DNA from: Escherichia coli
GTDB taxonomy: Bacteria; Pseudomonadota; Gammaproteobacteria; Enterobacterales; Enterobacteriaceae
DNA: 64,000 nt
Strand: one strand, 5' to 3'
Assembly (NCBI RefSeq): GCF_003991155.1
Contig: NZ_CP031293.1
A program made the position numbers and the translations under genes. Shown here one piece after another: positions 4,873 through 50,023 of this stretch. Numbering within the stretch: position 1 is the first letter of the stretch; the number at the start of each line of letters is the position of its first letter. The notes under the pieces are model-generated. The model saw nothing but the letters and a program-made list of their open reading frames with translations, searched no databases and was not told the origin of the DNA.

Positions 4873-4897
4873 TTGGCGGAAGATCACAGGAGTCGAA
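4873..4897. repeat. attR-like direct repeat: partial copy of selC 3' end (TTGGCGGAAGATCACAGGAGTCGAA)
   Basis: Exact 25-bp match to 49999..50023 (3' end of selC); additional AGAAGAGG shared just upstream. Confidence 0.8.
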
Positions 4898-5032
4898 TAT
4901 GAGAGTTAATGTTTTGATTTTAAATGATTAATACGTGTTGGATAAATGAGTAACCCCCATAAGAACCCCCAAATGACTTTGCGTAAGGGAATGAGGCTAA
5001 AATACACAATCGAATCAATTCTTAGAGCTTTA

Positions 5033-5878
5033 TTATGAAGGTAACACTCCCGGATAGTGTTTCGCAATAATCTCATTAAGTCTGTCAACCAGTTCTGGTT
5101 TCCTGAACGTGATGTGCGCGGAGCCCTTCTTAAAGTATCTGATGCTGAACATCTCATCTTCATAGTCCTCTTTACCCTGAACTGAGTGGATGTGATCATC
5201 CAGACGAATAGTGATGTTTTCCCGGTTGTCGGGGATCGGTTTGCCGCTGAACAGGTGTAGCATTCTTTCCAGATCGGCAAGTCGATCTGCCTGTTGCCCG
5301 GTGATAAGATGAAACCCCCACCGGTCCCACCTCACCAGGTTGTTGACGATAATTTTACTGCCAAATTTACAGGGCGAGTTGGTTTTGTAATCCCAGCCCA
5401 GTCCTCTGAAAACGTTGATCACCCCTCGCTCAAACACCTCATCCTTATTCTGGTGCAGTTGTTCAAATGTGCTCAGAATGTTCGCTTCATTGATTTTCGG
5501 AAAATTATCATATTCCAGTGACCGGTACCATGTATCACGGGCCTGTGCATCCATTAAGGAAAGCATCCCTGAACGTTGCATCAAGTTTCGCCAGATTTCA
5601 CGGTCAAGGTTCCGGGTGATGGCTTTCATTGCGGTTTCCGGTTTTTCCATCAGCCAGCAACCGCAGCGAAAATCCTGTTTCATCGCCCAGTCCAGGGCGG
5701 TTTTACCTCCAATACTTTCTGTCAGTACTGAGATTTCTGCCAGTTGCCGGATAAGTGTGTCGATTTGCAGCAGCGCACTCTTTCGTACAGCCAGAATGTG
5801 GCGGATACTGGTTGAGCAGATAACGTCCGTATGCCCGTTGACCAGTTCCGGGCGGGAGATTGTGATATCTGACATCAT
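5033..5878 (-). CDS. Conserved island-end protein, probably DUF4942 family
   Basis: 281-aa ORF at the integrase-distal island end downstream of the CbtA module; family assignment from memory. Confidence 0.55.
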   Translation of the reverse strand: MMSDITISRPELVNGHTDVICSTSIRHILAVRKSALLQIDTLIRQLAEISVLTESIGGKTALDWAMKQDFRCGCWLMEKPETAMKAITRNLDREIWRNLMQRSGMLSLMDAQARDTWYRSLEYDNFPKINEANILSTFEQLHQNKDEVFERGVINVFRGLGWDYKTNSPCKFGSKIIVNNLVRWDRWGFHLITGQQADRLADLERMLHLFSGKPIPDNRENITIRLDDHIHSVQGKEDYEDEMFSIRYFKKGSAHITFRKPELVDRLNEIIAKHYPGVLPS

Positions 5879-5890
5879 CGTTTTTCCTTT

Positions 5891-5930
5891 TGGTTTATAA
5901 ACGAAAACGCCAGCCCTGTTCAGGCTGGCG
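5891..5930 (-). terminator. Rho-independent terminator-like hairpin
   Basis: Stem CGCCAGCC/GGCTGGCG (5908-5930) followed on the minus strand by TTTTCGTTT. Confidence 0.5.
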
Positions 5931-5959
5931 TCAGTGGAATGAAGTCTGGTGAGTGAGAT

Positions 5960-6202
5960 TCACCGGTTCTGGTGCAGAAGCTGCAGTTGGCGCAGGGTAT
6001 GGATATCCTCCCTCGCCTGTTCAATACAGGACAACAGTGCTGCCGAATCCGTTTTATCCTCATTGTTGTCAAAGATAATTCCGGATTCGCAGTCGATATT
6101 GTCCTGCAGCCACGCAATCAGAATATCCAGTGCGGTTTCCGTGGTTAATGATTTCATGTTGCTCCTGGTTACCAGTTGAAAGTGGGTAAACCCGGCAGGC
6201 AT
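5960..6202 (-). CDS. Small YeeW-like protein
   Basis: 80-aa ORF (probable start at internal Met, ~6157) downstream of the cbtA-like toxin; resembles YeeW family. Confidence 0.4.
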   Translation of the reverse strand: MPAGFTHFQLVTRSNMKSLTTETALDILIAWLQDNIDCESGIIFDNNEDKTDSAALLSCIEQAREDIHTLRQLQLLHQNR

Positions 6203-6657
6203 TCAGCGCTGGCATCCAGATGAATGAGACTGACGCCATAACGTCGGGTAAGTGTGATAACCAGACGACGGAACGTTTTTGACAGCCCCAGGCGTTTAAG
6301 CCGCAGAACCGGATATGACCACGCATCGGTACGTAACAGATATCCGCTACCTGTGAAATGAATCCATTCTGATTCACCGAAGTCACTGGTCTGGTGTGAC
6401 AGCGAGTACAGCCAGGCGTTGTCCGTTTCCGTGATATGTGCGGTACTGCAGCGTATACCGGTCAGGGCAGCAAATGGTGGCATGCAGTCTGTTGAGGCCC
6501 GGTCAGATGCATCAACAACACGAAGGGAGTGGCCATTATCACAGACCACGTTAATCAGTTCAGCGAGATTAACACCATCGACGTCAACGACAATGCGTCC
6601 CATGTTCAGTGCCTGCACGTTAATGCTGTCGGCTTCCAGCGTCAGGGCCAGTTTCAT
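6169..6657 (-). CDS. Hypothetical protein, possibly DUF5983 family
   Basis: 162-aa ORF whose start overlaps the toxin stop (ATGA coupling). Confidence 0.5.
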
Positions 6658-7031
6658 TGTTTCGCCTCCGGATGTTTCCCCTGGGTAATGTTATTTACCG
6701 TTCTGTAGTTATCGCGGGTCATCAGGCCGGTTGCCCTGCGAGCCCGGAGAATATCAATACTGTTTATTAACTGAGAGCGGGTACAGGCGCTGAATCCCGG
6801 CTGGTCGGTACGTATCAGTGCGTATTTTTCAACGAGAAAGTTCACCGCATCACACAGTGAAATGCCAGCTTCAATATGCTGCTCAATCACACGTTCATCG
6901 GCGAACGGTGTGTCATTCAGTGTGAGGCCATAGTGCTGGTCCAGCAACCGGGACAGCAGTGTCTGCCAGATGGTGACGGGAGACGGGCAGCGAGATACCT
7001 CCCGTACATGTGTGTCGGATAATGTTTTCAT
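6654..7031 (-). CDS. Type IV toxin, CbtA/YeeV/YkfI family
   Basis: 125 aa; near-identical in long stretches to remembered YeeV (…[50 protein letters not shown]…). Confidence 0.85.
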
Positions 7032-7077
7032 CTTAAGTTCTCTGTAACTGGTAGTGCTAAAGGTGAGAGCTTCGGGG

Positions 7078-7452
7078 TTATGAGGTGGTTGCGGGTGCTG
7101 GTGTCGGATAAACAGTCAGATAAACGTAACCACAGGAGCCGAGGGTGTCGGCTTCGCAGGTCAGCCCTTTTGCATACAGCGTGACGGTATGCTGATGTCG
7201 GGGATTCAGTTCACCGCTGGTGAGCATGAGTTCCAGTTGTTTCATCAGCAGCGGAAAGGCCTGGTCCAGATGGTATGCATCTGCGTCGCTGAAGCGGCCT
7301 CTGATACCCGCGCGGTCGGCAAGGTAATGCAGGTGGTTACCCTCCTGCACCAGACGGGCGCCAAAACAGGGCCTCACTGTGCAGGGAAGCCCCCACCAGG
7401 GGCGGTCGTGATTGTCGTCGGGATGAGTTATCCCGGAGAGTTTGTCTGACAC
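7078..7452 (-). CDS. Type IV antitoxin, CbeA/YeeU/YfjZ family
   Basis: 124 aa; [43 protein letters not shown] matches YeeU. Confidence 0.85.
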
Positions 7453-7614
7453 GATAAAATCCTCTCTGAAAAGTGGTTAAGAATGGTTTAACGATGACAG
7501 GTCAGCCGGCGCGCTGACCGGTTTCGGTGAAGATGTATGCATTGATGAGAATGGCCTCATCCACAGCGGCGTCTGAGGTCATCTGGTCGTACTCGTTTCC
7601 CGGGTGACGGAACA

Positions 7615-7836
7615 TCAGTTCAGGGTGACACTCATCAGCCGGACATACGGGCCAAAACTGTCCTTACGGCGTTCTGCAAACACAGCCAGCACACCGGGAA
7701 TATCCTGCACTTCACGACCGGTATACGCTTCAGTGCCACCGTGCCAGCGGTACTTACCTGTGCAGAACGGAAAAAGACGGGATGCAGGATGCTGTTGGTG
7801 AATACGCATGGCTTCACCACGGGTGATGATTCTCAT
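7615..7836 (-). CDS. YeeT/YkfH-like protein (DUF987)
   Basis: 73-aa ORF in the conserved position between the RadC-like gene and the antitoxin. Confidence 0.55.
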   Translation of the reverse strand: MRIITRGEAMRIHQQHPASRLFPFCTGKYRWHGGTEAYTGREVQDIPGVLAVFAERRKDSFGPYVRLMSVTLN

Positions 7837-7898
7837 GATGTGATACCTCTGAAGACAGAAGATAAAAGTGAAAACAGGTGTGATGTGGTTGTGACGGG

Positions 7899-8375
7899 TT
7901 AAAGCAGACCATGTTCGGCAAAGGAGAATACCTGGCTGCCACCGACTATCAGATGGTCCGGCACCCGGATATCCACCAGGGCCAGCGCCTGAACCAGACG
8001 TTCCGTAATAAGCCGGTCTGCCTTACTGGGTGTGACTTCACCGGACGGATGATTGTGCGCCAGCACCACGGCAGCGGCATTGTGGTACAGGGCGCGTTTA
8101 ATCACCTCCCGGGGATGAACTTCCGTGCGGTTGATGGTGCCGGTGAAGAGGGTTTCACCGGCAATCAGCTGATTCTGGTTGTTCAGATACAGCACCCGGA
8201 ACTCTTCACGCTCCAGTCCCGCCATGTTCAGAATCAGCCATTCTCGTGCCGCACGGGTGGAGGTGAAGGCCACGCCGGGTTCATGAAGATGGCGGTCCAG
8301 GGTTTTCAGGGCCCGTTGAATGAGGCTGCGCTCACCGGGCGTCATTTCTCCGGGCAGAAAGGAAATCTGTTGCAT
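7899..8375 (-). CDS. RadC-like JAB-domain protein (YeeS/YfjY/YkfG family)
   Basis: 158 aa; HNHPSGEVTPSKADRLITERL matches the JAMM/RadC motif. Confidence 0.8.
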   Translation of the reverse strand: MQQISFLPGEMTPGERSLIQRALKTLDRHLHEPGVAFTSTRAAREWLILNMAGLEREEFRVLYLNNQNQLIAGETLFTGTINRTEVHPREVIKRALYHNAAAVVLAHNHPSGEVTPSKADRLITERLVQALALVDIRVPDHLIVGGSQVFSFAEHGLL

Positions 8376-8389
8376 TGTTCCGGCCCCTT

Positions 8390-8869
8390 TCAGTCAATGA
8401 TGCGCATAATGGCGCTGCATTCCGGATGCTGCAGGGCGTAATCCCGCAGCCGGTAATAATGGACCGTCATGGCATAACATTCCGTACGACAGGCATGATG
8501 GCTGTACGTCATCAGACAGGCGGCAATACCGGCAGCTTCCGGACTCATTTCAGCGCGGTTACCGTTCATGGCATTGAACAGTACCCATGTTTCGTCATCA
8601 TCGTCATCCGGTTCAGGTGCCATAAATGCGCCACCGTTGTTCAGGGTGTACAGATTCCAGATGCCCCCGCAGTAGTCTTCGCACAGACGGTCCATCCAGC
8701 CGAAGACACGGGGCTCCAGGGTCACCCACTGTGGAATGAGGCCAAAATGCTGCGGCCAGAAGCTGATACGTTGTTCATCAGGGACGGGAGTAGCAACCAG
8801 TTGGGGCTGGTTATTCCCTGGTGCTGTGGCTGAAGAAAGAGCAGTTGTGTTCTGAGAAACGATTTTCAT
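8390..8869 (-). CDS. Antirestriction protein, KlcA/ArdB-like (YfjX/YeeR-position)
   Basis: ORF 8390..8941 trimmed to Met25 (MKIVSQ...) with an upstream AAGGAT ribosome-binding site; acidic DDDDDE tract. Confidence 0.65.
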   Translation of the reverse strand: MKIVSQNTTALSSATAPGNNQPQLVATPVPDEQRISFWPQHFGLIPQWVTLEPRVFGWMDRLCEDYCGGIWNLYTLNNGGAFMAPEPDDDDDETWVLFNAMNGNRAEMSPEAAGIAACLMTYSHHACRTECYAMTVHYYRLRDYALQHPECSAIMRIID

Positions 8870-9134
8870 GAGTGAAATCCTTACAATGTGTATAAATGAG
8901 AGGAAATAAAGGCCGGGGGCTGACAACATCACGTTCATCACTGACCGTGAGACCCGGCAATATCAGGGATGAATGATATTCGGCTGAAATTCCGGACAGC
9001 CGTACGCGTAACCGTTCCGGTCACAGACGGATGGCCAGAAGATGCCATTGCCTGTACTCAGTCTGCACAGACTGAGTTCTCCGGGGCGTCGGGTGATTCT
9101 GGTGCCTGAATCACGCCTTCAGGGACAGATTGCA

Positions 9135-9953
9135 TCAGCGCAGGCTCTCCAGTAGCGTTTCTGCCATCACCCACAATGCGCGATTGAGCTTAATGTCGGT
9201 GTCGATGCTGTGAATGGCACGGGTGTGGATACGTTTTCCTCTGGCACTGCGACCGGAAATTCCGCCTTTCAGCATATTCTCCTGGATGGTCTGATAAGTA
9301 CTCCACAGGTCCTTACCGTAATCCTCCCGGCGTCGTGGCGTCAGAATGTCGGTAGTGGTGACGGGCTGATGTTCATCACCATAACGGTAAGTCAGCGCCG
9401 CCTGTGCCAGCGCCTGGCGTGCCGGTGGCGGCAGGACCAGCGACTGCATGGCATCACGCTTTTCCTCAATCCGGTCAAACACGCCCACCACTTCGTAAGC
9501 ACCTTCTATGACCCTGTCCACCACGTTTCCCCGGTGTGGCACCCGGACTTCTCCCAGCGACTGACCGCAGACCAGGCCATTGGTACAAATGGCACGAAAA
9601 TATCCGGGTAACATCTGGTAGCTGGATGAACCGTCATGGGAGTTGAGCAGAATAATTTCAGGCACATGCTGACCGGTTATCTGTCCGGCCCGCCGCAGAC
9701 GCAGCATATGTTTGGTATATTCCCGGCGGCTCTGGTCGCGCACACGGGTCTGGCAGGCGAAGAACGGCTGAAAGCCTTCCCGCTGCAGATTTTCCAGGAC
9801 GGTGATGGTGGGAATGTACGCATACCGTTCACTGCGGGAGGTGTGCCGGTCTTCTCCAAAAATACTCGGGACGTGGTACATCAGTTCTTCGCGTGTCAGT
9901 GGGCGCTCCCGACGGATCTGATTTACATGACCAAAACGACTGGCTAATTGCAT
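9135..9953 (-). CDS. DUF932-family protein (YfjQ-like)
   Basis: 272 aa; size, position and sequence resemble YfjQ of CP4-57. Confidence 0.65.
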   Translation of the reverse strand: MQLASRFGHVNQIRRERPLTREELMYHVPSIFGEDRHTSRSERYAYIPTITVLENLQREGFQPFFACQTRVRDQSRREYTKHMLRLRRAGQITGQHVPEIILLNSHDGSSSYQMLPGYFRAICTNGLVCGQSLGEVRVPHRGNVVDRVIEGAYEVVGVFDRIEEKRDAMQSLVLPPPARQALAQAALTYRYGDEHQPVTTTDILTPRRREDYGKDLWSTYQTIQENMLKGGISGRSARGKRIHTRAIHSIDTDIKLNRALWVMAETLLESLR

Positions 9954-9979
9954 ACTTTGCTCCTTATGAATGAATTAGC

Positions 9980-10021
9980 GGTATAAACGAAAAGGCCGCG
10001 TCTCCCGGAGAAGACGCGGCC
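9980..10021 (-). terminator. Rho-independent terminator-like hairpin
   Basis: Stem GGCCGCGTCT/AGACGCGGCC followed on the minus strand by TTTTCGTTTATA; same TATAAACGAAAA motif as the hairpin at 5891-5930. Confidence 0.5.
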
Positions 10022-10042
10022 TGATGGATGAAATGAAGACGT

Positions 10043-10276
10043 TTATTGCCTGAGAATTCCCTCACTGGCGAGGTACGAATTTAGCTGTTTTCCGGCGTCA
10101 GACTCAAAATTCCAGCACCGCCAGCGTAGTTGCCCTTCGGCATTGCGGATAACCAGCAGGAAATGCGTTCCATGGTCATCTTCAATAAGCACATTGCGGT
10201 AAGCTGTTGTGGCAGCCATTGCCTGTTTGCGTGAGAAAGGGCCTTCGGGCAATAAAACAGGGTGACAGTCCGACAT
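10043..10276 (-). CDS. Small hypothetical protein (77 aa)
   Basis: ORF sits in the operon-like minus-strand array and is followed by a terminator hairpin. Confidence 0.4.
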
Positions 10277-10281
10277 ACCGG

Positions 10282-10959
10282 CTATTTTCCGATAAATTCA
10301 ACGCTGGCACTGGTGGCATTACCGTCAGCACCAACCGTGACGGTCACTTTGTCGTACGCACGGTCTTCAGGATTGAATACTTCAAACTCAACCTTATTGC
10401 CTTTTACTTCGTAAGAGCCAAAATCAGCGGTTTCTGTTGTTTCCTCGTCATATTCCCGGGCGTATGCCTGCCGGGCAGCCTGCAGGACGGAGTCTTTATT
10501 AATAGTGGTCGTCTGTTTCGGGGAAAAACCGGCAAGTGATGTGACAAATTTCGGACAGACCTTCAGCATATCACCGCGGGTGAATTCCATTCGTACACCA
10601 AATGCCTGTAAAACGGACACATCACGCTCTGCTATGGAGTGAACGGCTTTTTTGACCATTTCCGGCGCCTGTCCGATTTCCACCTCAACAGCCCTGAATC
10701 CCGTCTGCTGATTACACATTTGTGATGTGGGGATCAGGTTACCGTTAATACTGATACGGCTGCCCAGGAGCGTCTGTACGCCATTCGGGCATCCCTGCAT
10801 CAGGCCGGTAATACCAATCGTGCCATTTTTCAGCATTACCAGCGCCTGACCATCTTCCGTCATGGTCTGACACCAGCCGTTTTTGACAGCCCAGTTGCCG
10901 GCGGAGGCGGAGAATGATGCCACAGTGAACAGCAGGGGAAAAAGAGCTCTGGTATTCAT
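10282..10959 (-). CDS. Secreted hypothetical protein (signal peptide, ~225 aa)
   Basis: ORF 10282..11064 trimmed to the internal Met preceding [20 protein letters not shown] (typical signal peptide). Confidence 0.5.
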
Positions 10960-11106
10960 GACTGACCTCTGAAATGAACGTACGGTGTTATTGATAATGA
11001 TGGAAGGTATGCAGTGACTGTTCAGGGAATGACGTAGCCGTATATTTAGTTTTCTGTTCAACATATTGTCTCCATACCTGTCGGGACGGCTTTGGCAGGC
11101 CGGCGA

Positions 11107-11787
11107 TCACAGGTTAAAGGTGTTGATAAGTTTATGGATGAAAGAGAAATGTGGCAGGGCGGAGATAAAACGCTCTTCAGCGACCAGACTGTGGATGTGG
11201 CCTCTCCGTTCAAACCGTTCTGATGTCAGGCTGACTGATTTGATATCTGCCAGAGGAAAGACCTGCAGTTTTCCCTTCTGTAACGCGATCAGATACCAGC
11301 TACCGCTGTAATAAATGAGCCGGCAGGGCTCCAGTGACGGATACCATCGCTCAGTCATCAGAGAGATGTGGATACACTGTCTTATTGCCAGGATGAGTTG
11401 CGAGAAACACTCGGGGAACGTTGCAGTGATATTCGGCGCCGGTAGCCAGATAAGGCAGGGAGAGGGCTCCTGGTTGTCGGTAAGACAGGTTATCAGTCGT
11501 CCGTTCCGGAGCGGAAGTATCCGTGCGATCCCGGTATTCTGTATAAAAGAAAGCATTTCAGGGATCGCACCTGGGCTGCTCTGTCGTCTGAGGCTGTACC
11601 TGCCATTTCTGTACTCTAAATCCAGGTGAACCAGACGCTGATGAAAATCGCGCTGTAAAGTACGTTCTGTAACGCCAAATTCATCTGACAGTGTTTTTAG
11701 TGACAGAGATTCTCCGGCCATCAGTCGGCTGATAATGAGTGATAAGCGAACCGCCAGGCGATCATGCCGGGAACGATTATCAGACAT
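11107..11787 (-). CDS. WYL-domain transcriptional regulator (YfjR-like, DeoR-type HTH)
   Basis: 226 aa; N-terminal HTH (LKTLSDEFGVTERTLQRDF); position next to the YfjP-like GTPase. Confidence 0.65.
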   Translation of the reverse strand: MSDNRSRHDRLAVRLSLIISRLMAGESLSLKTLSDEFGVTERTLQRDFHQRLVHLDLEYRNGRYSLRRQSSPGAIPEMLSFIQNTGIARILPLRNGRLITCLTDNQEPSPCLIWLPAPNITATFPECFSQLILAIRQCIHISLMTERWYPSLEPCRLIYYSGSWYLIALQKGKLQVFPLADIKSVSLTSERFERRGHIHSLVAEERFISALPHFSFIHKLINTFNL

Positions 11788-11989
11788 AGATGTGCACTCC
11801 GTAAGAAAACATCTTTTATTTCATGATGTTATTATGCCTCATGGTGTTGAAAGGATGTGTCGTATCTGAATAATCAGGAATAAAATGCAGCAGAAAAAAT
11901 ATTCCTTTAATTATCTGATTTTTAATGATGATTTCATAAAAAGAAGAATACTCATTAATCCAGCGACACATCCTGTCGGCGTGAGTGTG

Positions 11990-12874
11990 TCAGAACAGAC
12001 GATCCCACAGTGTTTCCAGCAGGCGGATAATGCGGTCCCGGGCTTTACGCAGAAGCTGTAACATCCAGACCGGAAAAGTGAACCGGGCAACGGCGTCGTC
12101 AAAACTTTTCCCGATGGCGTCACCAAAAGTCTGTTGTGCGTGTTTCTGGGCCTGTTCAGAGCGGTTTTCCCCCCGGATATGTGAATAAACCGCACTGGTT
12201 GCCTGCGGTGGCAGGGCGTGGATCATCAGCGACACAAACGCCGGAAGATTCCAGCCGACAGGCGCAGCAACGGGGAGTACCGGAAATGATGACGGGAACA
12301 GGGTTGCCACCCTGGCTGTAACAGTTGCCAGTGAGAGTTCCTGGTGACGGGATGGGCATTTTTCTGTGGCATTCCATTCTTCAGCAGGAAACACGCGATC
12401 GGCATGGCTGAGAACAAACAGAAAACGCGAGGGATCTGCACCTTCATTCAGTAAAAACTGATGCATGGCAATATCGGCAGCATACGCACGTTCATCAGCC
12501 CGCAGGATCCAGATAATCAGATCCAGTTCCGGCAGTAACTGACGGTAAAGCTCCCGGTATTCCTGATCATGCTGCGGTGTCTCACCAATGCCGGGCAGAT
12601 CGACCAGCGTCATTCTGCGTTCACCAATCTGCAGGGTGAGGCGATGAGCCTGGCGGGTGCAGCCGTTCAGGGGATGCGTGGCGCAGATACGGGACTGAAA
12701 AATGGCATTACACAGACTGCTTTTGCCGGAGCCGGATTTACCCATAATGCCAATCACGGGCTCGTAATGAATAACACCGTGGAGATGTTCAAGGATTTTC
12801 TGGCGAATTTCTTCAGGAAGAAACGTCAGATATGATTTCACTTGCGCGGAGAGGGAAGAATTGCTGAATGGCAT
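11990..12874 (-). CDS. YfjP/YkfA-like GTPase
   Basis: 294 aa; P-loop GIMGKSGSGKSS and DLPG motif. Confidence 0.8.
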   Translation of the reverse strand: MPFSNSSLSAQVKSYLTFLPEEIRQKILEHLHGVIHYEPVIGIMGKSGSGKSSLCNAIFQSRICATHPLNGCTRQAHRLTLQIGERRMTLVDLPGIGETPQHDQEYRELYRQLLPELDLIIWILRADERAYAADIAMHQFLLNEGADPSRFLFVLSHADRVFPAEEWNATEKCPSRHQELSLATVTARVATLFPSSFPVLPVAAPVGWNLPAFVSLMIHALPPQATSAVYSHIRGENRSEQAQKHAQQTFGDAIGKSFDDAVARFTFPVWMLQLLRKARDRIIRLLETLWDRLF

Positions 12875-12974
12875 ACCGGTATCCTGTTGATTTCACTGAA
12901 CCGGATCACACTAATCCGGTTTATCATTCAGGTAATATGGGTGTGAAAATTTTTCCATTGACGGGAAGAAGAGT

Positions 12975-15434: not shown

Positions 15435-15734
15435 ATGACAAAAACAGTATCAACCAGTAAAAAACCCCGTAAACAGCATTCGCCTGAATTTCGCAGTGAA
15501 GCCCTGAAGCTTGCTGAACGCATCGGTGTTACTGCCGCAGCCCGTGAACTCAGCCTGTATGAATCACAGCTCTACAACTGGCGCAGTAAACAGCAAAATC
15601 AGCAGACGTCTTCTGAACGTGAACTGGAGATGTCTACCGAGATTGCACGTCTCAAACGCCAGCTGGCAGAACGGGATGAAGAGCTGGCTATCCTCCAAAA
15701 GGCCGCGACATACTTCGCGAAGCGCCTGAAATGA
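15435..15734 (+). CDS. insE: IS3 transposase OrfA
   Basis: [29 protein letters not shown]... matches IS3 OrfA; ORF-track start 15426 is an upstream GTG. Confidence 0.85.
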
Positions 15735-27859: not shown

Positions 27860-27862
27860 GCG

Positions 27863-40313: not shown

Positions 40314-40334
40314 AATCTTTTTCTGGAGGAAAAT

Positions 40335-41147: not shown

Positions 41148-41168
41148 CGACAGACAGGACATTTTACT

Positions 41169-42479
41169 ATGACTATAACAACCCTAATACAAAAAGCAGG
41201 ACTTACAATCTGTATAGCTGGCGGTGTACTCGCGGCAACAGGCGGGTTGATGCAATCCGCTGTGCTCTGGCAACCTGGATTGGTGATGCTTACTGCAGGC
41301 TTTGCCCTCGGTGCTGGTTACTGGCCGATACTTCGAAGTTATCAATTCACGTTATGGATTATCGCAGGTTTCGTGGCTGCGATGACCTGGTCGATGGATT
41401 TGATTGTCTGGGGCGGGTTTAACATTACTCACAAATGGATCGTGTTTTTAGTCATTCAGGCAACGATGTTCAGTATGGGTACCAAACTGACGATTCAGGA
41501 TTTTATCGATGTTGCCAAAATGCCATGGGCGGTGTTTATTGGCACCTTCTGCCACTTTGTGATTATGCCGTTGCTGGGGCTAACCATTACGCTGTTATTT
41601 GATTTTCCGCCAGAAGTTGCGGTGGGGATCCTGCTCATAGGTGCCTGCCCTAGCGGTTTATCATCAACTGTTATGGTTTATATCGCTAACGCGAACCTCG
41701 CGCTGGCGGTATCAATCGCCGCAGTTTCTACGCTGGCAGCAACGGTTATGACGCCGTTGTGGGTAAATTTGCTGGCTGGCTCCATGATTGACATCCAACT
41801 TACCGCAATGGTTATGGACGTGGTGAAAATTGTCCTTATACCAATTGGTGCAGCAATTTTGCATGACTACCTGAAAACGTACGCTGGAGTTCGAGGTCGA
41901 CGAACCGTGCAGCTTCTCGCCGGGATCTGCGCCCTGTGGCTAATTTACATGAGCTCTGGTGGTTGGGACTATCTCTTTGACAACGCCAGTGCAGACGTAC
42001 AAATGTATGCCGTGGTACTGAACTTTGTCACGGGTGGCATTGTATGGGCGTTGTTCTATAACTGGCTGTACAGTCGCGTGGAAGGCATTCAAAAGATTAT
42101 GCCAACCATCTCTATGATTGGGATCATCTTCTTTACCACCACCGCTGCGGCAGCTGGTCGTGATAACCTGTTGCAGGTTGGTTTCCTGCTTTGTTTCGCC
42201 ATGTTGTTGCATAACCTTGGCGGTTTCCTGATTGGCTATCTGATGAGTCGCTGGATATTCCGCATGGACGAACAATCGTCCCGTACCGTAGCCTTTGAAG
42301 TGGGATTGCAAAACGGAGGTATGGCGTCAGGTCTGGCAGCGGCAATGGGCAAACTGGCTACAGTTGGCCTTGCCTCTGCAGTCATGACACCTCTCGGCAA
42401 TGTGAGTGGTTCGCTGTTGGCAAACTACTGGCGCAAAAAAGACGCTCGTAAAGCACAGACTGCGAATAAAGACAAATAG
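41169..42479 (+). CDS. BASS-fold (bile acid:Na+ symporter-like) membrane transporter
   Basis: 436-aa polytopic protein; …GACPSGLSSTVMVYIANANLALAVSIAAVSTLAA… resembles BASS crossover motifs. Confidence 0.6.
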   Translation: MTITTLIQKAGLTICIAGGVLAATGGLMQSAVLWQPGLVMLTAGFALGAGYWPILRSYQFTLWIIAGFVAAMTWSMDLIVWGGFNITHKWIVFLVIQATMFSMGTKLTIQDFIDVAKMPWAVFIGTFCHFVIMPLLGLTITLLFDFPPEVAVGILLIGACPSGLSSTVMVYIANANLALAVSIAAVSTLAATVMTPLWVNLLAGSMIDIQLTAMVMDVVKIVLIPIGAAILHDYLKTYAGVRGRRTVQLLAGICALWLIYMSSGGWDYLFDNASADVQMYAVVLNFVTGGIVWALFYNWLYSRVEGIQKIMPTISMIGIIFFTTTAAAAGRDNLLQVGFLLCFAMLLHNLGGFLIGYLMSRWIFRMDEQSSRTVAFEVGLQNGGMASGLAAAMGKLATVGLASAVMTPLGNVSGSLLANYWRKKDARKAQTANKDK

Positions 42480-42514
42480 TCTGCCTGTTGTAACCTTTCA
42501 AAAGGAAACTCAAT

Positions 42515-42934
42515 ATGACGACATTGACCCTGAAACAAGCATTGCTTGCAGTAGAGTATGCGCTTGATCTTGCAGTGCAACAATATGCTGGCCGTCCTTT
42601 AAGTGTGGCAGTATGCGATGTTAATGGTGAATTGCTGAGCTTTGCCCGCATGGATAGAGCCAAACTGTTAACTATTGAATTAACGCAGCGTAAAGCACGA
42701 ACCAGTAGTCGTCTGGGCTGTACGACAGCAGCATTCTTACAGCGTCTACAAAAAGAGCAACTTGATATCAGCTATTTTGGAGATCCCCGGTTTACCGCAT
42801 TACCAGGAGGGATCCCTATTCTGGTTAAAGGAAAATGCATTGGTGCTGTTGCTGTGGGGGGATTATCCGCACGAGAAGATCATGATGCGGCACAGGCTGT
42901 CGCAGATAAACTGCTTGAGGAGATGACCAAATGA
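42515..42934 (+). CDS. GlcG/HbpS-like protein (DUF336)
   Basis: 139 aa; …GGIPILVKGKCIGAVAVGG… typical of GlcG-like proteins. Confidence 0.65.
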   Translation: MTTLTLKQALLAVEYALDLAVQQYAGRPLSVAVCDVNGELLSFARMDRAKLLTIELTQRKARTSSRLGCTTAAFLQRLQKEQLDISYFGDPRFTALPGGIPILVKGKCIGAVAVGGLSAREDHDAAQAVADKLLEEMTK

Positions 42935-43581
42935 AAAAAATAGCCATGCTTCACACCAGTTCAGCCACGCTTGCGGTGATGCAACAACTGATAGGCGATA
43001 TCATGCCTGAGGCTGAAGTGATGCATCTGGTTGAGGAGTCTATGATTAAGCAGGTGATGAAAGCGGGCGGTGTTACGCCAGATATCGCCGCACGGATCGC
43101 TGATTACATACGGATCGCTGAAAAAGCCGACTGCGATATTTTCATTACCGCTTGTTCATCAATTGGTACTGCTGTCGAACAGTGTCAATTTATGACTTCA
43201 GTACAACTGGCACGGATTGACTGTGCGATGGTGGATGAAGCAATCAACAAAGGGGAACACATTGCTGTGCTGGCAACGGTGGCCACAACGCTGAAACCGA
43301 CGCTTGATTTTGTCCGGCGAAAAGTTCAGGAAAGTGGAAAACAGCGGATTATTACACCTGTTTTAATGGAAGAAGCCTTCCATGCGTTATTGAATGGTGA
43401 TATGGGAACGCATGACCGCATTGTGAGTGAAGGATTACAAAAGGCCTTTGGGCAGGCAGATGTTATTATGTTAGCGCAGGCATCGATGGCACGGGTGCTG
43501 CAAAATATGCCTGAGCCTCCGGTTCCGGTATTAACATCGCCAGAAAGCGGTATTCGCTGGTTGAAAACATTCGCGAGTTAA
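42931..43581 (+). CDS. Asp/Glu/hydantoin racemase-family enzyme
   Basis: 216 aa; start overlaps GlcG stop; conserved Cys-containing ACSS segment. Confidence 0.6.
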   Translation: MKKIAMLHTSSATLAVMQQLIGDIMPEAEVMHLVEESMIKQVMKAGGVTPDIAARIADYIRIAEKADCDIFITACSSIGTAVEQCQFMTSVQLARIDCAMVDEAINKGEHIAVLATVATTLKPTLDFVRRKVQESGKQRIITPVLMEEAFHALLNGDMGTHDRIVSEGLQKAFGQADVIMLAQASMARVLQNMPEPPVPVLTSPESGIRWLKTFAS

Positions 43582-44101
43582 GTCAGGTATAGTTTCTATA
43601 TTAAAGACGTTTACACATAATGGTGTACAGGCCCATTCAGAAACGGAACTGGGAATTTATTAACGGATAATCCGGAAACGTATTAAATGGCAGAAGGTAA
43701 CTACTTTCTGCCATTTCACAGACAGGATGTACATATTAATCGGCCATGATGGTTGACATAAAAAATGCATCGGCAGTGATGTGGCAAGTTTTTCCCGGAC
43801 AATGTTTTTCTTCATCCCACTTGCAGAAAATATATAATATTATATTTTATATAACATTTTCTAACTCATTGAATACACTTGCAAATCTTCTCATTCTTAC
43901 TTAGAAATATTATTAATTTTAACGTTCTTTGTTGAATGTTTGTTTGGTTACAGCCATCTAATTTTTTAAATGCACAGTATCTGTGGATAACTTTGCGTAA
44001 ACACTGGGGACAGAGCTCGTTGAACCAGAGAAAGCACGCATGAAAACAAAATACTCATTCTTTAACCATTCTGTATAAGATCAGATGTCAGATCTGCTCA
44101 A

Positions 44102-44157
44102 TTCCGCTTTCCCGGTCACTGACTCGCTACGCTCGATCGTTCGGTTGCGGCGAGCGG
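44102..44157. other. ColE1/pBR322-type primosome assembly site (pas/ssi)-like sequence
   Basis: TTCCGCTTTCCCGGTCACTGACTCGCTACGCTCGATCGTTCGGTTGCGGCGAGCGG is ~90% identical to the remembered pBR322 segment TTCCGCTTCCTCGCTCACTGACTCGCTGCGCTCGGTCGTTCGGCTGCGGCGAGCGG. Confidence 0.4.
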
Positions 44158-44455
44158 AGTCTCCTTTCTCAAAATCAGGCTTCGTGCATCTGGTCACAAA
44201 CCCGTATATCAATCATCATTGATGAGAAATTATCTTTATGAGGGCGTTTTTTTGGTTTCAGTTTTGCACGGAACCAGGAGATTTTTGGGAGTTGTTTTAT
44301 GTATGTTGTAAATAAAATTTTAATATTGACATCTACTGTACGTGCATAGAGTACGCCGGTGACCAACGTCAGCATTCCACTGTTCCAGTAACTAATTAAC
44401 GTAAGTGAAGTTATCGAGGAAGCAATACTGGATGGAGAAGTCGTCCTTGAGGTAT

Positions 44456-44737
44456 TCACTTTCCTTTCGTTCTGCCCATTAGTGGACAGCTAACTAGTGG
44501 CAGGACATCGGAGTACAGCACCTTCCCGTTGTTATTTATCAGCACGGCAGCTTTCTGGTTATTGACGAGCACAGTTTTCACGCCGCCGCCAAAGTTGTGG
44601 AAGACTCGCACCAGTGACTCATGGGTATGTTCAGCATCCTGTATGGGGCAGCAAAGAGATAGAAGCGACGTGAGAACCCCCTGCGTATTAGTCGCGAAGT
44701 TAATGCAGCATCGTTGTCTGACCAGTACCCCAGTCAT
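44456..44737 (-). pseudogene. IS21-family IstA transposase fragment
   Basis: …DAEHTHESLVRVFHNFGGGVKTVLVNNQKAAVLINNNGKV… matches the IstA segment …DAEHTYESLVRAFRYFGGCVKTVLVDNQKAAVLKNNNGKV…. Confidence 0.55.
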
Positions 44738-44952
44738 GCTGGAGCTGGTAATCCGGCTGAGTTTTGAAGCGAACCGTTTTCTTCGATTTCCGTCTGGGAA
44801 GTAATCAGACTCAGCACGGACAAAAATTGCAGCGCCCGGATGGCACGGGTAATGGTCAGATTACCGGATGCGGATTAGGTGCCGCGTAGTGAAGCGCGCC
44901 GGATTCAGAGTCGCTAGTATGGTCATACAGCGAAGGAAAGCCGCCAATTTTT

Positions 44953-45225
44953 GTGCCGGACGTGGAATATACAGCGAATGCTGATGTAAAAGGCGCTCGT
45001 AATATTTTAGCTGCGGGACATACTGTGCTTGCCAGGGAAGGGATGGTGCAGTCAGACCACCCGTTGAAGCGAAATGAACCTGAACCATACGACAACCTGA
45101 AAGTAGCAGGAATCCACGCCCTGAAGGACGTGGAGGAAGTCAAATCGATGGTAGGTTGTAGGTTTATGGCAACATCTGCTTCATTAGATACATGTCGATA
45201 TACAGAACATATATCACATTTATGA
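44953..45225 (+). pseudogene. 3' fragment of an IS200/IS605-family tnpB (RNA-guided nuclease) gene
   Basis: …ANADVKGARNILAAGHTVLAREGMVQ… resembles the conserved TnpB C-terminus; no N-terminal part upstream. Confidence 0.4.
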
Positions 45226-45903
45226 ATTTTCTTTTATCCTGCTATTTTGGGGTTTATTGTGAAAGTAACTTTCAAGAACAGGCAGATAGTACCAGGATTC
45301 AGGATGTTTTTTCAGGAATTCATTTAAAAATGATTGCATTGTTAAATATAAATCTTTGTTATTTCCTTTATGTATAAAATCATAAATCCACACGTAATTA
45401 CTGTAATTAGAATCAAAGTATGATGCAATAAAATACGCATTAGCACCTGCGCGTCTTACAATATATTCCCAACCACCGTGCAACCATGCTTTCTTATTCA
45501 GTAGACAAGCTTCTCTTACAGAACCATAGTTTTCGCTACTATACACTGAGGGTATATCTGGTAATATAATCAAATTAGCTCCGTTTTTTACAAGCTTAAT
45601 CATGGCCTTTATTTCTGTAATGCCATTTTTTTCGAAAACAGTAATCTGATGCCCAAGTCCAGAAAGTGAATGTATTAATTCCAACTCATTGAGACCATTT
45701 ACAGAACTTCTATAAAAAATAAAATGTGAGTTAGATTTATATGAAAGTAGAATTTTATGAATGGCTGTCCAGTATTCACCAGAATGTAAAACTACAAACA
45801 CAGAATTATTAAGTGTTTTATGTAATGCATCCAAAAAACAGTCTTCATATATAAATTTTGTACGGTGTGCATACTCATGAAGGGTATTCATAGACACAAT
45901 CAT
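45220..45903 (-). CDS. Orphan hypothetical protein, 227 aa, AT-rich (weak resemblance to LpxL/LPLAT-type acyltransferases)
   Basis: Uninterrupted ORF in low-GC DNA; family assignment uncertain. Confidence 0.5.
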   Translation of the reverse strand: MIVSMNTLHEYAHRTKFIYEDCFLDALHKTLNNSVFVVLHSGEYWTAIHKILLSYKSNSHFIFYRSSVNGLNELELIHSLSGLGHQITVFEKNGITEIKAMIKLVKNGANLIILPDIPSVYSSENYGSVREACLLNKKAWLHGGWEYIVRRAGANAYFIASYFDSNYSNYVWIYDFIHKGNNKDLYLTMQSFLNEFLKKHPESWYYLPVLESYFHNKPQNSRIKENS

Positions 45904-45983
45904 TTTAGCCCTATTACTGACAATAATGATAATTGATATTCTGAGCGTATCGAAAATAAGTCCGAATTATCAGAAGGTTTATT

Positions 45984-46756
45984 ATGAAAATACTCATTGC
46001 AGGGGCAACCGGAAGTATTGGTCTTCATGTCGTGAATACCGCTATTGAAATGGGTCATCAGCCCGTGGCGCTGGTCAGAAATAAACGCAAAGTAAAATCT
46101 CTTCCTCGTGGAACAGATGTTTTTTACGGCGATGTTTCAATGCCGGAAACACTCACCGAATTGCCGAAAGATATTGATGCCATCATCTTCACTCTCGGTT
46201 CTGATGGCCAGGGGCGTATTGGTGCCAGAGCGATCGATTACGGAGGAGTGCGTAATATTTTGCGAATATTCAGGGATACACCTGTTCGTATCAGCTAATG
46301 ACCACGATTGGCGTGACTGAGCGGCTCAGCACTTGGAATCAACGCACTGAGGTTCATGACAGGAAAAGACGTGCCGAGCGTCTGGTCAGGGCCAGCGGTC
46401 ATCCCTATATTATCGTCCGGCCCGGCTGGTTTGATTACAACAATGATGATGAACACAGGATCGTTATGCTTCAGGGGGATCGTCGCCATGCAGGAACACC
46501 GGAAGATGGTGTGATATCCCGGGAGCAAATCGCCCAGGTTCTGGTCAGTGCCCTGACCAACGACGAGGCAAAAAATAAAACGTTCGAGCTGGTGGCTGAA
46601 CGAGGTGAAGCACCACAGGATCTTACCCCACTGTTTGCAGAACTGCAGACTGATGATGCACAAAAAAATGATGGGGTTCTGGACATAGACAATATGCAGC
46701 TGAGAGAAGAACCGGAGTGCATTATTAACGAGCTGAACCTGTATTCAAAAAATTAA
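45984..46756 (+). pseudogene. NAD(P)-binding SDR/NmrA-like oxidoreductase gene split into two ORFs (104 aa + 152 aa)
   Basis: N-terminal Rossmann motif GATGSIGLHVV in ORF1; ORF2 continues the same fold in a different frame; ORFs overlap at TAATG (46296-46300). Confidence 0.5.
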
Positions 46757-46897
46757 ACAATCTACAACCCTGACAATTTTGTCATATAGCGGTCAGCCTC
46801 ATGACAGTTTAAGTCTGTATATTTACATACACAAACGGGGATAGTTCCCTTGATACGAATCCAGTTTTAAACATAGATTTTAAAAGAGGTATTAAAT

Positions 46898-47149
46898 ATG
46901 AAAGCATTACTTATTACTACATTGGTCATGGGGTTTATTTCAGTGAATGCCGCATCTGCAGCTCAGGAAATTAACCATGCAGATGGGAAAGAAAAGATAG
47001 GTGTAGTCTCAGCCAGCAATGCCTATACGCTTGATGAATTATCGAATACGCTTTCTCGTAAGGCTGATGAACAAGGAGCAACATCGTTCAAAATTCTGTC
47101 AACCACGGGGAATAACCGGCTGCACGGGGTTGCTGAAATCTATAAGTAA
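46898..47149 (+). CDS. DUF1471 (YdgH/BhsA/McbA-family) periplasmic stress protein
   Basis: 83 aa with signal peptide and the family's C-terminal …FKI.S..G.N.L.G.AEIYK motif. Confidence 0.7.
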   Translation: MKALLITTLVMGFISVNAASAAQEINHADGKEKIGVVSASNAYTLDELSNTLSRKADEQGATSFKILSTTGNNRLHGVAEIYK

Positions 47150-47205
47150 ATCATTAGTATCCTGAGCAGGATGTGTCTTAACCCTCTTATAGCGAGCGTC
47201 GATTT

Positions 47206-47541
47206 ATGTTTAGAACAGAAGACATCATCGATGAGATAACCCAATGGATTGATTCAAATTTACATAAGCCGCTGAAGATAGAGGATGTTGCTGCGCGGGC
47301 AGGATACTCGAGGTGGCATCTTCAGCGGATTTTTGTGCAGGTGAGAGAAATTAGCCTTGGGAAGTACATAAGAGATACGAAACTTAGACTTGCAGCAAAA
47401 GATCTTATCGCGACTAATGAGCCAGTGATGGTTATCGCCTTTAAATATGGATTCGATTCACAACAAACTTTTACTCGGATTTTCTTTAAAAAATATAAAT
47501 TGCCACCATTGAAATATAGGGTAATGACTCCAACTTATTGA
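47206..47541 (+). CDS. MarA/SoxS-like small AraC-family regulator, C-terminus replaced by IS1 insertion
   Basis: 111-aa ORF with two HTH motifs; its last 7 codons lie inside IS1. Confidence 0.6.
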
Positions 47542-48038
47542 TAGTGTTTTATGTTCAGATAATGCCCGATGACTTTGTCATGCAGCTCCACCGATTTTGA
47601 AAACGACAGCGACTTCCGTCCCAGCCGTGCCAGGTGCTGCCTCAGATTCAGGTTATGCCGCTCAATTCGCTGCGTATATCGCTTGCTGATTACGTGCAGC
47701 TTTCCCTTCAGGCGGGATTCATACAGCGGCCAGCCATCCGTCATCCATATCACCACGTCAAAGGGTGACAGCAGGCTCATAAGACGCCCCAGCGTCGCCA
47801 TAGTGCGTTCACCGAATACGTGCGCAACAACCGTCTTCCGGAGCCTGTCATACGCGTAAAACAGCCAGCGCTGGCGCGATTTAGCCCCGACGTATCCCCA
47901 CTGTTCGTCCATTTCCGCGCAGACGATGACGTCACTGCCCGGCTGTATGCGCGAGGTTACCGACTGCGGCCTGAGTTTTTTAAATGGCGGAAAATCGTGT
48001 TGAGGCCAACGCCCATAATGCGGGCGGTTGCCCGGCAT
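47535..48038 (-). CDS. insB: IS1 transposase InsB
   Basis: 167 aa matching IS1 InsB. Confidence 0.9.
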
Positions 48039-48232
48039 CCAACGCCATTCATGGCCATATCAATGATTTTCTGGTGCGTACCGGGTTGAGAAGCGGTGTA
48101 AGTGAACTGCAGTTGCCATGTTTTACGGCAATGAGAGCAGAGATAGCGCTGATGTCCGGCGGTGCTTTTGCCGTTACGCACCACTCCGTCAGTAGCTGAA
48201 CAGGAGGGACAGCTGATAGAAACAGAAGCCAC
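47957..48232 (-). CDS. insA: IS1 InsA
   Basis: 91 aa matching IS1 InsA (zinc finger CPSC…CSHC). Confidence 0.9.
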
Positions 48233-48522
48233 TGGAGCACCTCAAAAACACCATCATACACTAAATCAGTAAGTTGGCAGCATCACCGAAATATAGAAAC
48301 GCGGAAAGGAGAAAAAAACTTCACCAGCCCATGTCTTAAGTTCTGTCAGTATGGCTACAGCCTGTTTGCTGAGTGGCACAAGGTGTGGTGTTCGAATCTT
48401 GGTTCCCCAATGAGAGTTCAGGCGGTGTGGGCAAATAAAAAAGAAAACATAAATAAAACCATCCGACCGTTGGTGGGGCTGGATGGTTATTCATTATTTC
48501 TATGTCACTGAACTTTCATTCA

Positions 48523-49704
48523 TCAGATCTGCTCAGAAAGTGAATCAATGTAGTCAGCATACCACTGCATCATTTCACGGCGACCATCCAGATACTGGGC
48601 ATGATTATAGGTACCTCTGATAGCGTTTTTATCCATATGAGCTAACTGCATTTCAATCCAGGCAGAATTAAAGCCCTGTTCGTGCAGAATTGTACTCATG
48701 GTGTGTCTGAAACCGTGCCCTGTGAGTCTTCCCTTATATCCTAGTAATTCAATGACTTGGTTTATGCTTTCCTTACTAATTGGTTTGCGAGGATCGTTCC
48801 TACCGATAAAGACCAGAGGATGATGTTTTGAGATTGGTTCAAGTTGCTTAAATAGCGCAATGACCTGCTCAGAGAGCGGCACAATATGAGGTCGCTTCAT
48901 CTTCATTACTTCTGCCGGGATCTCCCATAATTTTGTCTCAAAATCGATATCCTCCCAGCGTGCGAAACGCAATTCTTGAGTTCGTACACCAGTTAGCATA
49001 ATGATTTGAGTGGCTGTCTTAGTGATAATACTTCCGGTATAACCCGCCAGATCATTGAGGAAGTGGGGAAGTTCATTAGCAGTAAGAAAGGGAAAATGTA
49101 CTTTTTTCGGTGTAGCTAAAGCACTGGCAAGATCGGGAGCAGGGTTGTAGTTAGCCCGACCAGTAACAATTGCATAGCGGAACACCTCTCCACAGCGCTG
49201 GCGGACCTTACGCATTTTCTCCAGAGCTCCACGTTTTTCCATTTTACGCAATGCTTCCAGTAACTCCATTGGTTTGATTTCAGCAATAGGGCGTTTGCCA
49301 ATATAGGGAAAAATATCTTTTTCAAAGGTATCAATGATTTCATCACGATAGCGTAATGACCACCGATCGGCTTTTGACTGATGCCATTCTCGAGCAACGG
49401 CCTCAAATGTGTTTTTCAAACTCATTTGCAGCGCGATTTTTTCTTCTTTTTTTGTCTCACCCGGATCGCATCCTGCAGCGAGGATTTTCCTAGCTTCACT
49501 GCGTTTTTCGCGAGCGTCGGCTAGAGTTACATCGGGGTATACGCCAATAGAAAGCATCTTTTCTTTGCCAGCAAAGCGGTACTTCATACGCCAATATTTA
49601 GAACCATTAGTGTTAATGAGTAGATACATACCGCCACCATCAGACAGCTTATAGGGCTTTTCTTTTGGTTTTGCGGTTTTCACTTTAATATCAGTTAACG
49701 CCAT
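48523..49704 (-). CDS. P4-type tyrosine integrase (site-specific recombinase)
   Basis: 393 aa; catalytic HGFRHT and C-terminal Tyr region; immediately adjacent to selC. Confidence 0.9.
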   Translation of the reverse strand: MALTDIKVKTAKPKEKPYKLSDGGGMYLLINTNGSKYWRMKYRFAGKEKMLSIGVYPDVTLADAREKRSEARKILAAGCDPGETKKEEKIALQMSLKNTFEAVAREWHQSKADRWSLRYRDEIIDTFEKDIFPYIGKRPIAEIKPMELLEALRKMEKRGALEKMRKVRQRCGEVFRYAIVTGRANYNPAPDLASALATPKKVHFPFLTANELPHFLNDLAGYTGSIITKTATQIIMLTGVRTQELRFARWEDIDFETKLWEIPAEVMKMKRPHIVPLSEQVIALFKQLEPISKHHPLVFIGRNDPRKPISKESINQVIELLGYKGRLTGHGFRHTMSTILHEQGFNSAWIEMQLAHMDKNAIRGTYNHAQYLDGRREMMQWYADYIDSLSEQI

Positions 49705-49998
49705 GACATCCTCCGGATTTTGATGAATCCATGTTCCTGGACTTCTGCCAGTAACTGACCTGATATCCCCAATGCACCCCCATGTATAACAAAGATGTTG
49801 TTAAAAGCCGTTGTTATATATCACATTTTTTCCATTATGGGGGTGCTGATATTTTAAGAGAAAATAGTACCCCCTAAAGTACCCCCAAAAGCAACTTGAT
49901 ATGGGGTGATACCGGTTGACCTCGGGATACAAAGAAATCCTGATATACAATAGGTTATATGGAGATTGTTGATATAAGGAGAGTTCAGAAGAGGTTAA

Positions 49999-50023
49999 TT
50001 GGCGGAAGATCACAGGAGTCGAA
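49999..50023. repeat. attL core: 25-bp direct repeat overlapping the 3' end of selC
   Basis: Identical to 4873..4897. Confidence 0.8.

Follow-up and report, generated by a model that had tools for sequence, protein, structure and literature searches.

The 64,000-nucleotide stretch of Escherichia coli DNA analysed here (NCBI RefSeq assembly GCF_003991155.1, contig NZ_CP031293.1), hereafter called the window, very probably carries a single, integrase-defined genomic island of the selC family typified by PAI I536 of uropathogenic E. coli 536, inserted in the chromosome of a strain of the sequence type (ST) 457 kind. The insertion site, the terminal repeats, the family of the integrase, the ends shared with other islands and the presence or absence of the element within ST457 were all observed here. 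The island is built on a skeleton common to other selC islands, which consists of the integrase with the integrase-side arm, a distal toxin–antitoxin/antirestriction module and a 14-kb pseudouridine/AlpA block. Next to the integrase lies a variable 21.7-kb slot, which in this lineage was filled piecemeal by cassettes associated with insertion sequences (IS) of the IS66, IS110 and IS1 types and with intron sequences, namely a second tnaCAB operon, an oxo-tetronate-like operon and a block encoding a RamA-like regulator.

Insertion of the island at selC

The selC gene, which encodes tRNA-Sec, is a textbook hotspot for the insertion of genomic islands. In the window it is intact (minus strand; 50000–50094 according to ARAGORN and 50004–50094 according to Rfam, with 83.8 bits) and it is the single tRNA gene found by ARAGORN. 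The 25-mer TTGGCGGAAGATCACAGGAGTCGAA overlaps its 3′ end at 49999–50023 (plus strand; the attL core) and recurs as an exact match at 4873–4897 (plus strand), where this displaced copy of the selC 3′ end forms the distal direct repeat, attR. There is no third copy in the window at up to three mismatches. The repeats extend imperfectly to 39 bp (35 of 39 positions identical between 4859–4897 and 49985–50023), and their start-to-start spacing, which gives the size of the insert, is 45,126 bp. On the left side the insert is bordered by setC (3051–4235, minus strand); at the opposite end the integrase gene, int (48523–49704, minus strand), lies 295 bp from the 3′ end of selC.

The view that the left repeat is a coincidence and that the interval is ordinary core genome is refuted by two results. 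No match to the 25-mer was obtained in 100 shuffles of the sequence, in line with a chance expectation of zero. In addition, a synthetic empty site, made by joining window positions 4298–4897 (left flank plus one repeat) to 50024–50623 (selC/yicJ), was found as an uninterrupted setC–selC–yicJ junction in 2467 of 5426 complete E. coli genomes. Since the interval is absent exactly at the repeat in these genomes, the region between the repeats is an insertion and not part of the core genome. The claim of the initial annotation, made from sequence alone, that an island of about 45 kb bounded by 25-bp direct repeats occupies this site is therefore correct as to its coordinates, as is the placing of a P4-type integrase beside an intact selC, which is borne out by the domain set of the protein and by the ARAGORN and Rfam calls.

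The closest match to the empty site was found in strain CREC-544, whose left (4,897 bp) and right (13,977 bp) flanks, 18.9 kb in all, are identical to those of the window, the sole differences being four bases at 49995–49998, on the island side of the core; the selC copies of the two genomes are likewise identical. CREC-544 belongs to ST457 (PMC5884925), as do the island-bearing strains MRY15-117 and MRY15-131 (PMC5430464), so that strains of one and the same sequence type either carry the island or lack it cleanly. Together with the tRNA 3′-end site, the direct repeats and the adjacent P4-type integrase, this absence in close relatives identifies the element as a tRNA-associated island. Its base composition agrees with this assignment: the G+C content of the island is 46.9% and patchy (32–54% by segment) as compared with 50.2% in the right flank, which is in itself a weak criterion for foreign origin.

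A fragment of a rhuM gene (4634–4795) is located just outside the left repeat and is found within the ‘empty’ selC site of thousands of E. coli genomes. As it belongs to the empty site, it is not a part of the island but was left behind by much older DNA associated with selC. The rhuM gene belongs to SPI-3 of Salmonella, which is another selC island.

Integrase and arm motifs

The int gene encodes a full-length P4-type integrase of 393 amino acids with the Pfam domains Arm-DNA-bind_3, Phage_int_M and Phage_integrase. The protein scores 318 bits (E = 7.6e-95) against NCBIfam NF007246, under the curated cutoff of 434 bits, and the catalytic residues R241, H330, R333, H356 and Y366, as read from integrase alignments, are in place. 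Its amino acid sequence shares 97% identity with that of the selC integrase of Eco889 and 94% with that of the PAI I536 integrase, and the DNA of the selC-adjacent integrase gene of strain U1 is 95.8% identical to that of the window. The P4-like integrase of PAI I536 is required for both integration and excision (PMC7286903). By analogy, the enzyme encoded in the window would recombine the 25-bp core of the island attP with the identical selC 3′ end, so that the tRNA gene is restored intact at attL, beside the integrase, and the displaced 25-bp copy remains at attR, the far end.

Each arm of the island contains one copy of the motif ACCCCC-N6-ACCCCCAAA, at 4953–4973 in the distal arm and at 49869–49889 in the integrase-side arm (both on the plus strand), that is, 56 bp inward of the left repeat and 110 bp inward of the right one. 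These are the only two occurrences in the window, against 0.01 expected, and the motif is kept at the corresponding places in both arms of the islands of Eco889, U1 and 536 as well as in the integrase-side arm of strain I3. The two copies are candidate arm-type binding sites, to which the N-terminal domain of the integrase might bind. With the same motif present once in each arm, the ends of the island look like two halves of one attP.

The conserved skeleton

At a coverage of at least 80%, the left half of the island (4000–27000) is found in 350 complete genomes, and the block that they share spans 4862–26772 (22 kb). Its distal part, a ‘yee’/CP4-like maintenance module (5033–12874, minus strand; PGAP annotation of a 100% identical record), encodes DUF4942, DUF957 and DUF5983 proteins, the CbtA toxin and YeeU antitoxin, DUF987, RadC/JAB and antirestriction proteins, DUF932 and DUF905 proteins, a hypothetical protein, a WYL-type helix-turn-helix (HTH) regulator and a GTPase. 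The segment 4862–12949 is 89–98% identical in nucleotide sequence to the distal end of PAI I536. The remainder of the block, 12950–26772, is common to the selC islands of Eco889 and U1 with 94–99.7% identity, the similarity ending at 26772 with respect to the former and at 26469 with respect to the latter.

Within this remainder, a segment of 34% G+C holds an orphan open reading frame (ORF) of 407 codons (12975–14198, plus strand), which is conserved across the islands inspected and is listed under an identical protein accession in the islands of Eco889 and U1. Its product has no family match in Pfam, NCBIfam, PHROG or PADLOC, and its AlphaFold model is poor (pLDDT 64, pTM 0.42). It has an N-terminal Cys/His cluster, with C8, C13, C29 and H32 invariant, and only 16 homologues were found. 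An intact IS3 of 1258 bp follows (15370–16627, plus strand; ends and the 3-bp target duplication GTG were read from the sequence), which is missing from this site in Eco889. The annotated cargo of the block (16912–23462), which is 98.8–99.7% identical in the Eco889 and U1 islands, comprises genes for a Gp2/YfjJ-like protein, an acyltransferase, a pseudouridine kinase, a pseudouridine-5′-phosphate glycosidase, a NupC-family transporter and an HTH-sugar kinase (NCBIfam PRK09954, 732 bits). A last annotated segment (24763–26453, plus strand) contains a gene for a YagK/YfjJ-domain protein, a pseudogene and a gene for an AlpA-family HTH protein (26220–26453; Pfam Phage_AlpA PF05930, E = 2.5e-10, and PHROG excisionase families). 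AlpA of CP4-57 activates the expression of intA and excision, and by analogy the AlpA-family protein of the window is likely to be an excision regulator.

Two stretches of about 65 bp (16849–16916 and 25371–25433) are 74–77% similar to each other. One immediately precedes the first YfjJ/Gp2-like gene, the other immediately follows the second such gene, and they may represent a shared regulatory sequence.

The integrase relic and the question of serial integration

Just downstream of int, an 89-bp stretch (48320–48408, minus strand; tblastn E = 0.011) represents the relic of a different tyrosine recombinase gene, which the annotations of strains I3 and 536 list as a partial integrase and which shares 93–97% nucleotide identity with integrase genes elsewhere. 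The relic indicates that at least one older, second element once occupied the locus. This raises the possibility that two or more integrase-bearing islands were inserted serially at selC and that later deletions removed the internal att sites and the older integrase. The presence of two YfjJ-like genes and of an AlpA gene far from int and on the other strand would fit such a history, as would the further partial integrase genes carried by the islands of Eco889, U1 and 536. Nevertheless, we consider this history unlikely for the element at hand. Since the relic is also present in PAI I536, it is ancient, and its occurrence there and in strain I3 implies that it predates this variant of the island. 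The supposed second module is located within the block common to 350 genomes, which in the islands inspected is paired with a closely related selC integrase (97% amino acid identity in Eco889, 95.8% nucleotide identity in U1). The same arm motif is found at both ends, and PAI I536 has both ends in common with the island. Finally, no internal att remnants were found between the terminal repeats, even at low stringency, and no intact integrase other than int turned up in the island, the 89-bp relic being the only further trace.

These results bear on the remaining claims of the initial annotation. The contents that it listed are present, namely the CP4-like module at 5033–12874, YfjJ and AlpA genes, several IS families, chromosomal fragments and metabolic genes, and the interior is indeed a mosaic with many IS elements. 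Its proposal of IS-mediated rearrangement holds, albeit for one slot. By contrast, its preference for serial integrations over a single element is not upheld, given the lack of internal att sites, the single intact integrase and the shared skeleton; in particular, the second alpA/YfjJ module, which it had set apart as a separate component, is a conserved part of the 350-genome block and not strain-specific. A single element of the PAI I536 type thus remains the preferred explanation.

The variable slot next to the integrase

Similarity to other selC islands ends at 26772 on the distal side and resumes on the integrase side at 48530 (Eco889), 48536 (U1) or 48320 (536 and I3, both of which also share the relic). 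In Eco889, U1 and I3 the cargo found here is quite different and includes tia, leoA, afa/dra and restriction systems as well as the microcompartment loci grp or cut. The right half of the window's island, apart from IS elements, int and sequences matching the native tna, is confined to 21 complete genomes, so that the lineage-specific stretch amounts to 21.7 kb next to the integrase. A plasmid origin of this half was considered and rejected: in the PLSDB collection it had no plasmid match, and only IS elements and mislabelled chromosomes were matched.

The most conspicuous occupant of the slot is a second, divergent tnaCAB operon (29336–32535, minus strand; tnaB 29399–30646, tnaA 30738–32153, tnaC 32360–32434). 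The reference genome thus has two tna places, and the island copy is 94.5–95% identical in nucleotide sequence to the native tna of every E. coli genome. Altogether 5460 tna places were counted in 5424 genomes, and the island accounts for 21 of the at most 36 extra copies. Compared with K-12, the island tnaA differs at 32 of 1416 bases and at one of 471 residues (TnaA being identical at 470 of 471), whereas TnaB is identical at 405 of 415 residues and TnaC at 22 of 24, with W12, D16 and P24 kept. Judged from these sequences, the island operon is an intact xenologue under purifying selection that would have come from a lineage near E. coli. A translocation of the native locus is ruled out by the two copies in the reference genome and by the divergence of about 5%. 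As for possible donors, the retrieved species representatives (E. whittamii, E. albertii and two records titled E. coli) were set aside, since at 89.7–91.8% identity they are further from the island copy than is native E. coli tna. The tna segment is flanked by inverted IS66-family sequences (27823–27981 and 33778–33948) that are 94% complementary.

A second occupant is an acid-sugar cassette of eight genes (36627–43587, plus strand; 6,961 bp; NCBIfam). The cassette encodes a 3-oxo-tetronate kinase, a 3-oxo-tetronate-4-phosphate decarboxylase, a DeoR/YgbI-like regulator, a 2-oxo-tetronate isomerase-like protein, a BKACE enzyme, a BASS-family transporter, a GlcG/HbpS protein and a member of the Asp/Glu racemase family. 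Only OtnK (510 bits, cutoff 350) and OtnC (289 bits, cutoff 250) exceed the NCBIfam cutoffs, the others, including the isomerase and the YgbI-like repressor, falling below theirs. The nearest named relatives of the cassette are from Citrobacter, with 68–70% protein identity. The same eight genes are found at 89.6% nucleotide identity in two draft assemblies (GCA_902840805.1 and GCA_902842565.1), in both of which an IS66-family transposase gene is located upstream and a group II intron reverse transcriptase gene downstream of the cassette. This suggests that the oxo-tetronate-like cassette is a mobile cargo unit. The inverted IS66 sequences around tna, taken together with the occurrence of this cassette beside IS66 and intron genes elsewhere, point to IS-associated accretion confined to one slot.

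The rest of the slot consists largely of remnants and small genes. An annotated debris zone (27521–29135) contains fragments of a DNA-binding gene, of an IS66 transposase gene (27824–27982), of melA and of a gene for a beta-glucoside phosphotransferase system (PTS), and ends with an isolated remnant of group II intron domains V/VI (29049–29135, between the PTS fragment and tnaB; Rfam RF00029, 50.1 bits). Further on, an annotated IS110-family fragment (33084–33510, minus strand) abuts a truncated ISCro1 of the IS66 family (33498–35983, minus strand), which is 99.8% identical to the ISCro1 of strain U1, and a small transposase ORF is annotated at 35977–36159 (minus strand). The annotated block 43588–47519, found only in the 21 genomes, includes small hypothetical genes, fragments of an IncFII RepA gene and of a TnpB gene, an acyltransferase-like ORF, a frameshifted SDR gene and a DUF1471 gene. 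A gene for a RamA/SoxS/MarA-like AraC regulator (47206–47541; NCBIfam ramA_TF, 151.9 bits, below the cutoff of 180) is cut at its 3′ end by an IS1, which replaces the last 14 or so codons in the window; an intact form is present at 33206–33562 of comparison sequence L002, and the nearest named relatives, at 83–86%, are from Klebsiella, Enterobacter, Citrobacter and Scandinavium. This IS1 (47520–48287, minus strand; 768 bp, with ends and the 9-bp target duplication GAAATATAG read from the sequence) is specific to the genome of the window and is missing in all 21 otherwise identical genomes.

Apart from selC and the group II intron remnant, Rfam revealed no non-coding RNA in the window, either at gathering thresholds or at E ≤ 0.05. 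When ten ORFs of unknown or cargo type were examined with PADLOC for anti-phage defence functions, only partial matches of WYL and HTH type were obtained. The cargo of LEE, SHI-2 and PAI-I (haemolysin/fimbriae, type III secretion, aerobactin, tia/leoA) is not found among the annotated features of the 100% identical record, in agreement with the earlier statement that classical selC virulence cargo is lacking. Likewise, no relaxase, type IV secretion or coupling protein is annotated and the unknown ORFs tested gave no such match, oriT not having been searched for.

Distribution and mobility

The whole island is found in 21 complete E. coli genomes, with about 100% identity and always at the same locus; their sources are humans, cattle, pigs, sheep, dogs, a mink and wastewater. 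A query consisting of int plus the arm gave a match covering most of its length in about 1238 of the 5426 genomes. The complete copies, all at one locus and essentially identical, look like the result of vertical inheritance in one clone rather than of ongoing mobility, and this is one of several observations that weigh against our reading. The alpA gene is 22 kb away from int and transcribed in its direction (convergent), contrary to the situation in CP4-57. The arm motif was first spotted by eye, and its conservation is among homologous, not independent, sequences. When metagenome contigs were scanned for an exact match to the attP junction of a circular, excised form, none was found, and the pattern within ST457 fits gain and loss of the island alike.

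One might therefore suppose that the element is a frozen, immobile remnant, whose presence or absence reflects homologous recombination of the flanking core DNA and not the action of the integrase. The uniformity of the 21 copies and the attP scan are both in keeping with this, and so are the lack of annotated relaxase or transfer genes and the many pseudogenes and IS insertions in the island. We nevertheless regard it as rather unlikely, even if less so than serial integration. The clean attB of CREC-544 lies between 18.9 kb of flanks that are 100% identical to those of the window, whereas sequence differences should accompany an empty allele that had been imported; other empty-site genomes, sampled among the matches listed, are about 97–98% identical over the junction. 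The identical flanks around a clean attB thus favour precise, integrase-mediated gain or loss over a foreign empty allele. The full-length integrase with its catalytic residues and the perfect 25-bp repeats also speak against a frozen remnant, and the integrase-defined island may still be competent for excision. As no transfer genes are annotated, it would not transfer itself between cells, and a helper or general recombination would be needed.

The occurrence of the island and of its clean absence within ST457 provides a natural and simple case on which integrase-mediated gain or loss can be tested. Besides, the rare second tnaCAB, with its divergence of about 5%, could affect indole signalling. 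It is tempting to speculate further that the island is still proficient in excision and that its lineage-specific slot matters for the fitness of the globally spread ST457 clone, a conjecture to which we give little credence. If it were true, ST457 would have gained a second tryptophanase operon, intact and apparently functional, whose source lies outside the sampled E. coli, and would produce more indole or regulate it differently; a new pathway for four-carbon acid sugars and an efflux activator of the RamA type would have been added as well. The integrase-proximal slot at selC would then be a general platform for the exchange of metabolic cassettes.

Neighbouring chromosomal segments

Two observations concern the chromosome on either side of the island. 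Positions 1–391 of the window hold the end of a gene for a type III secretion chaperone of the SycD/LcrH type, which in related genomes is part of a locus beside yicS that also contains eilA, genes for IpaD/SipB-like translocators and the adhesin gene iatC. On the other side, the segment 54392–61335, between yicI and yicH, encodes a BglG-type antiterminator, IIA, IIB and IIC components of a fructose-type PTS, two aldolases, a ROK protein and a D-lyxose/mannose isomerase. This cluster is missing in strain I3 and hence represents a second variable segment, without mobility genes.

Comparison with known systems

No published description of this particular island was found in the literature on selC with tnaA, on ST457 islands or under the strain names. 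Its closest known counterpart is PAI I536, an island of about 77 kb that carries alpha-haemolysin together with F17-like and CS12-like fimbriae (PMC7545054). The two islands share the insertion site, the integrase (94% amino acid identity), the same integrase relic and the same arm motif at both ends; the integrase side is 92.7% identical in nucleotide sequence over 48320–51383, and the distal GTPase-to-DUF4942 module is 89–98% identical. Accordingly, both parts of the PAI I536-type skeleton, i.e. the integrase with the integrase-side arm and the homologous distal yee module beside attR, are present in the window. The differences lie in the cargo: the alpha-haemolysin and fimbriae of PAI I536 are not annotated in the window's island, and conversely the pseudouridine/AlpA block, tnaCAB and the otn cassette are unmatched in the two end segments of PAI I536 that were compared (about 26 kb).

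The selC islands of Eco889 and U1, with tia/leoA-type ends and grp, cut and dsd cargo, resemble the window's island in the integrase, in the 22-kb distal block with psuK/psuG/nupC and AlpA, most of which is 98.8–99.7% identical, and in the arm motifs. They are larger, however (about 64 and 80 kb), and in place of tna, otn and ramA-like genes their slot contains tia, leoA, afa/dra, restriction systems and microcompartment loci of the glycyl-radical propanediol or choline type. Other islands inserted at selC, such as LEE, SHI-2, Tia-PAI, LPA and GIselC17584/1, also combine a CP4-type integrase with a direct repeat of the 24-bp class (PMC6174562, PMC7545054), a combination that the island shares. 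Unlike in these, type III secretion, aerobactin, tia/leoA and espI/iha genes are not annotated in the window's island. More generally, neither the virulence determinants of a pathogenicity island nor the genes of an integrative conjugative or mobilizable element are among its annotated features.

Likeness extends to elements at other sites. The cryptic prophages CP4-57 and CP4-44 of E. coli K-12 likewise possess a P4-type integrase, an AlpA-family regulator, YfjJ-like proteins and the GTPase/DUF932/antirestriction/RadC/CbtA–YeeU set, but differ in their cargo and attachment sites. With an int and an AlpA gene that are 22 kb apart and convergent, and with insertion at selC and not, as in CP4-57, at ssrA, the island does not belong to the CP4-57 type of cryptic prophage. 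GI-pheV also has a P4-type integrase beside a tRNA gene, tRNA-derived repeats and modular cargo that varies, as does its ‘yee’ module, albeit with another tRNA target and integrase type. Its modules, or the whole island, are gained and lost within a sequence type (PLoS Genet 2024, PMC11537424), and intP4 is reported as its only conserved gene (PMC11537424), whereas in the window's island the 22-kb distal block, too, is common to 350 genomes.

In the light of these comparisons, the island is an ordinary example of a well-known kind, which combines a known PAI I536-type integrase and end modules with metabolic instead of virulence genes. One and the same selC island skeleton can thus be loaded with virulence genes in some strains and with metabolic genes alone in others, with all the variation being located beside the integrase.

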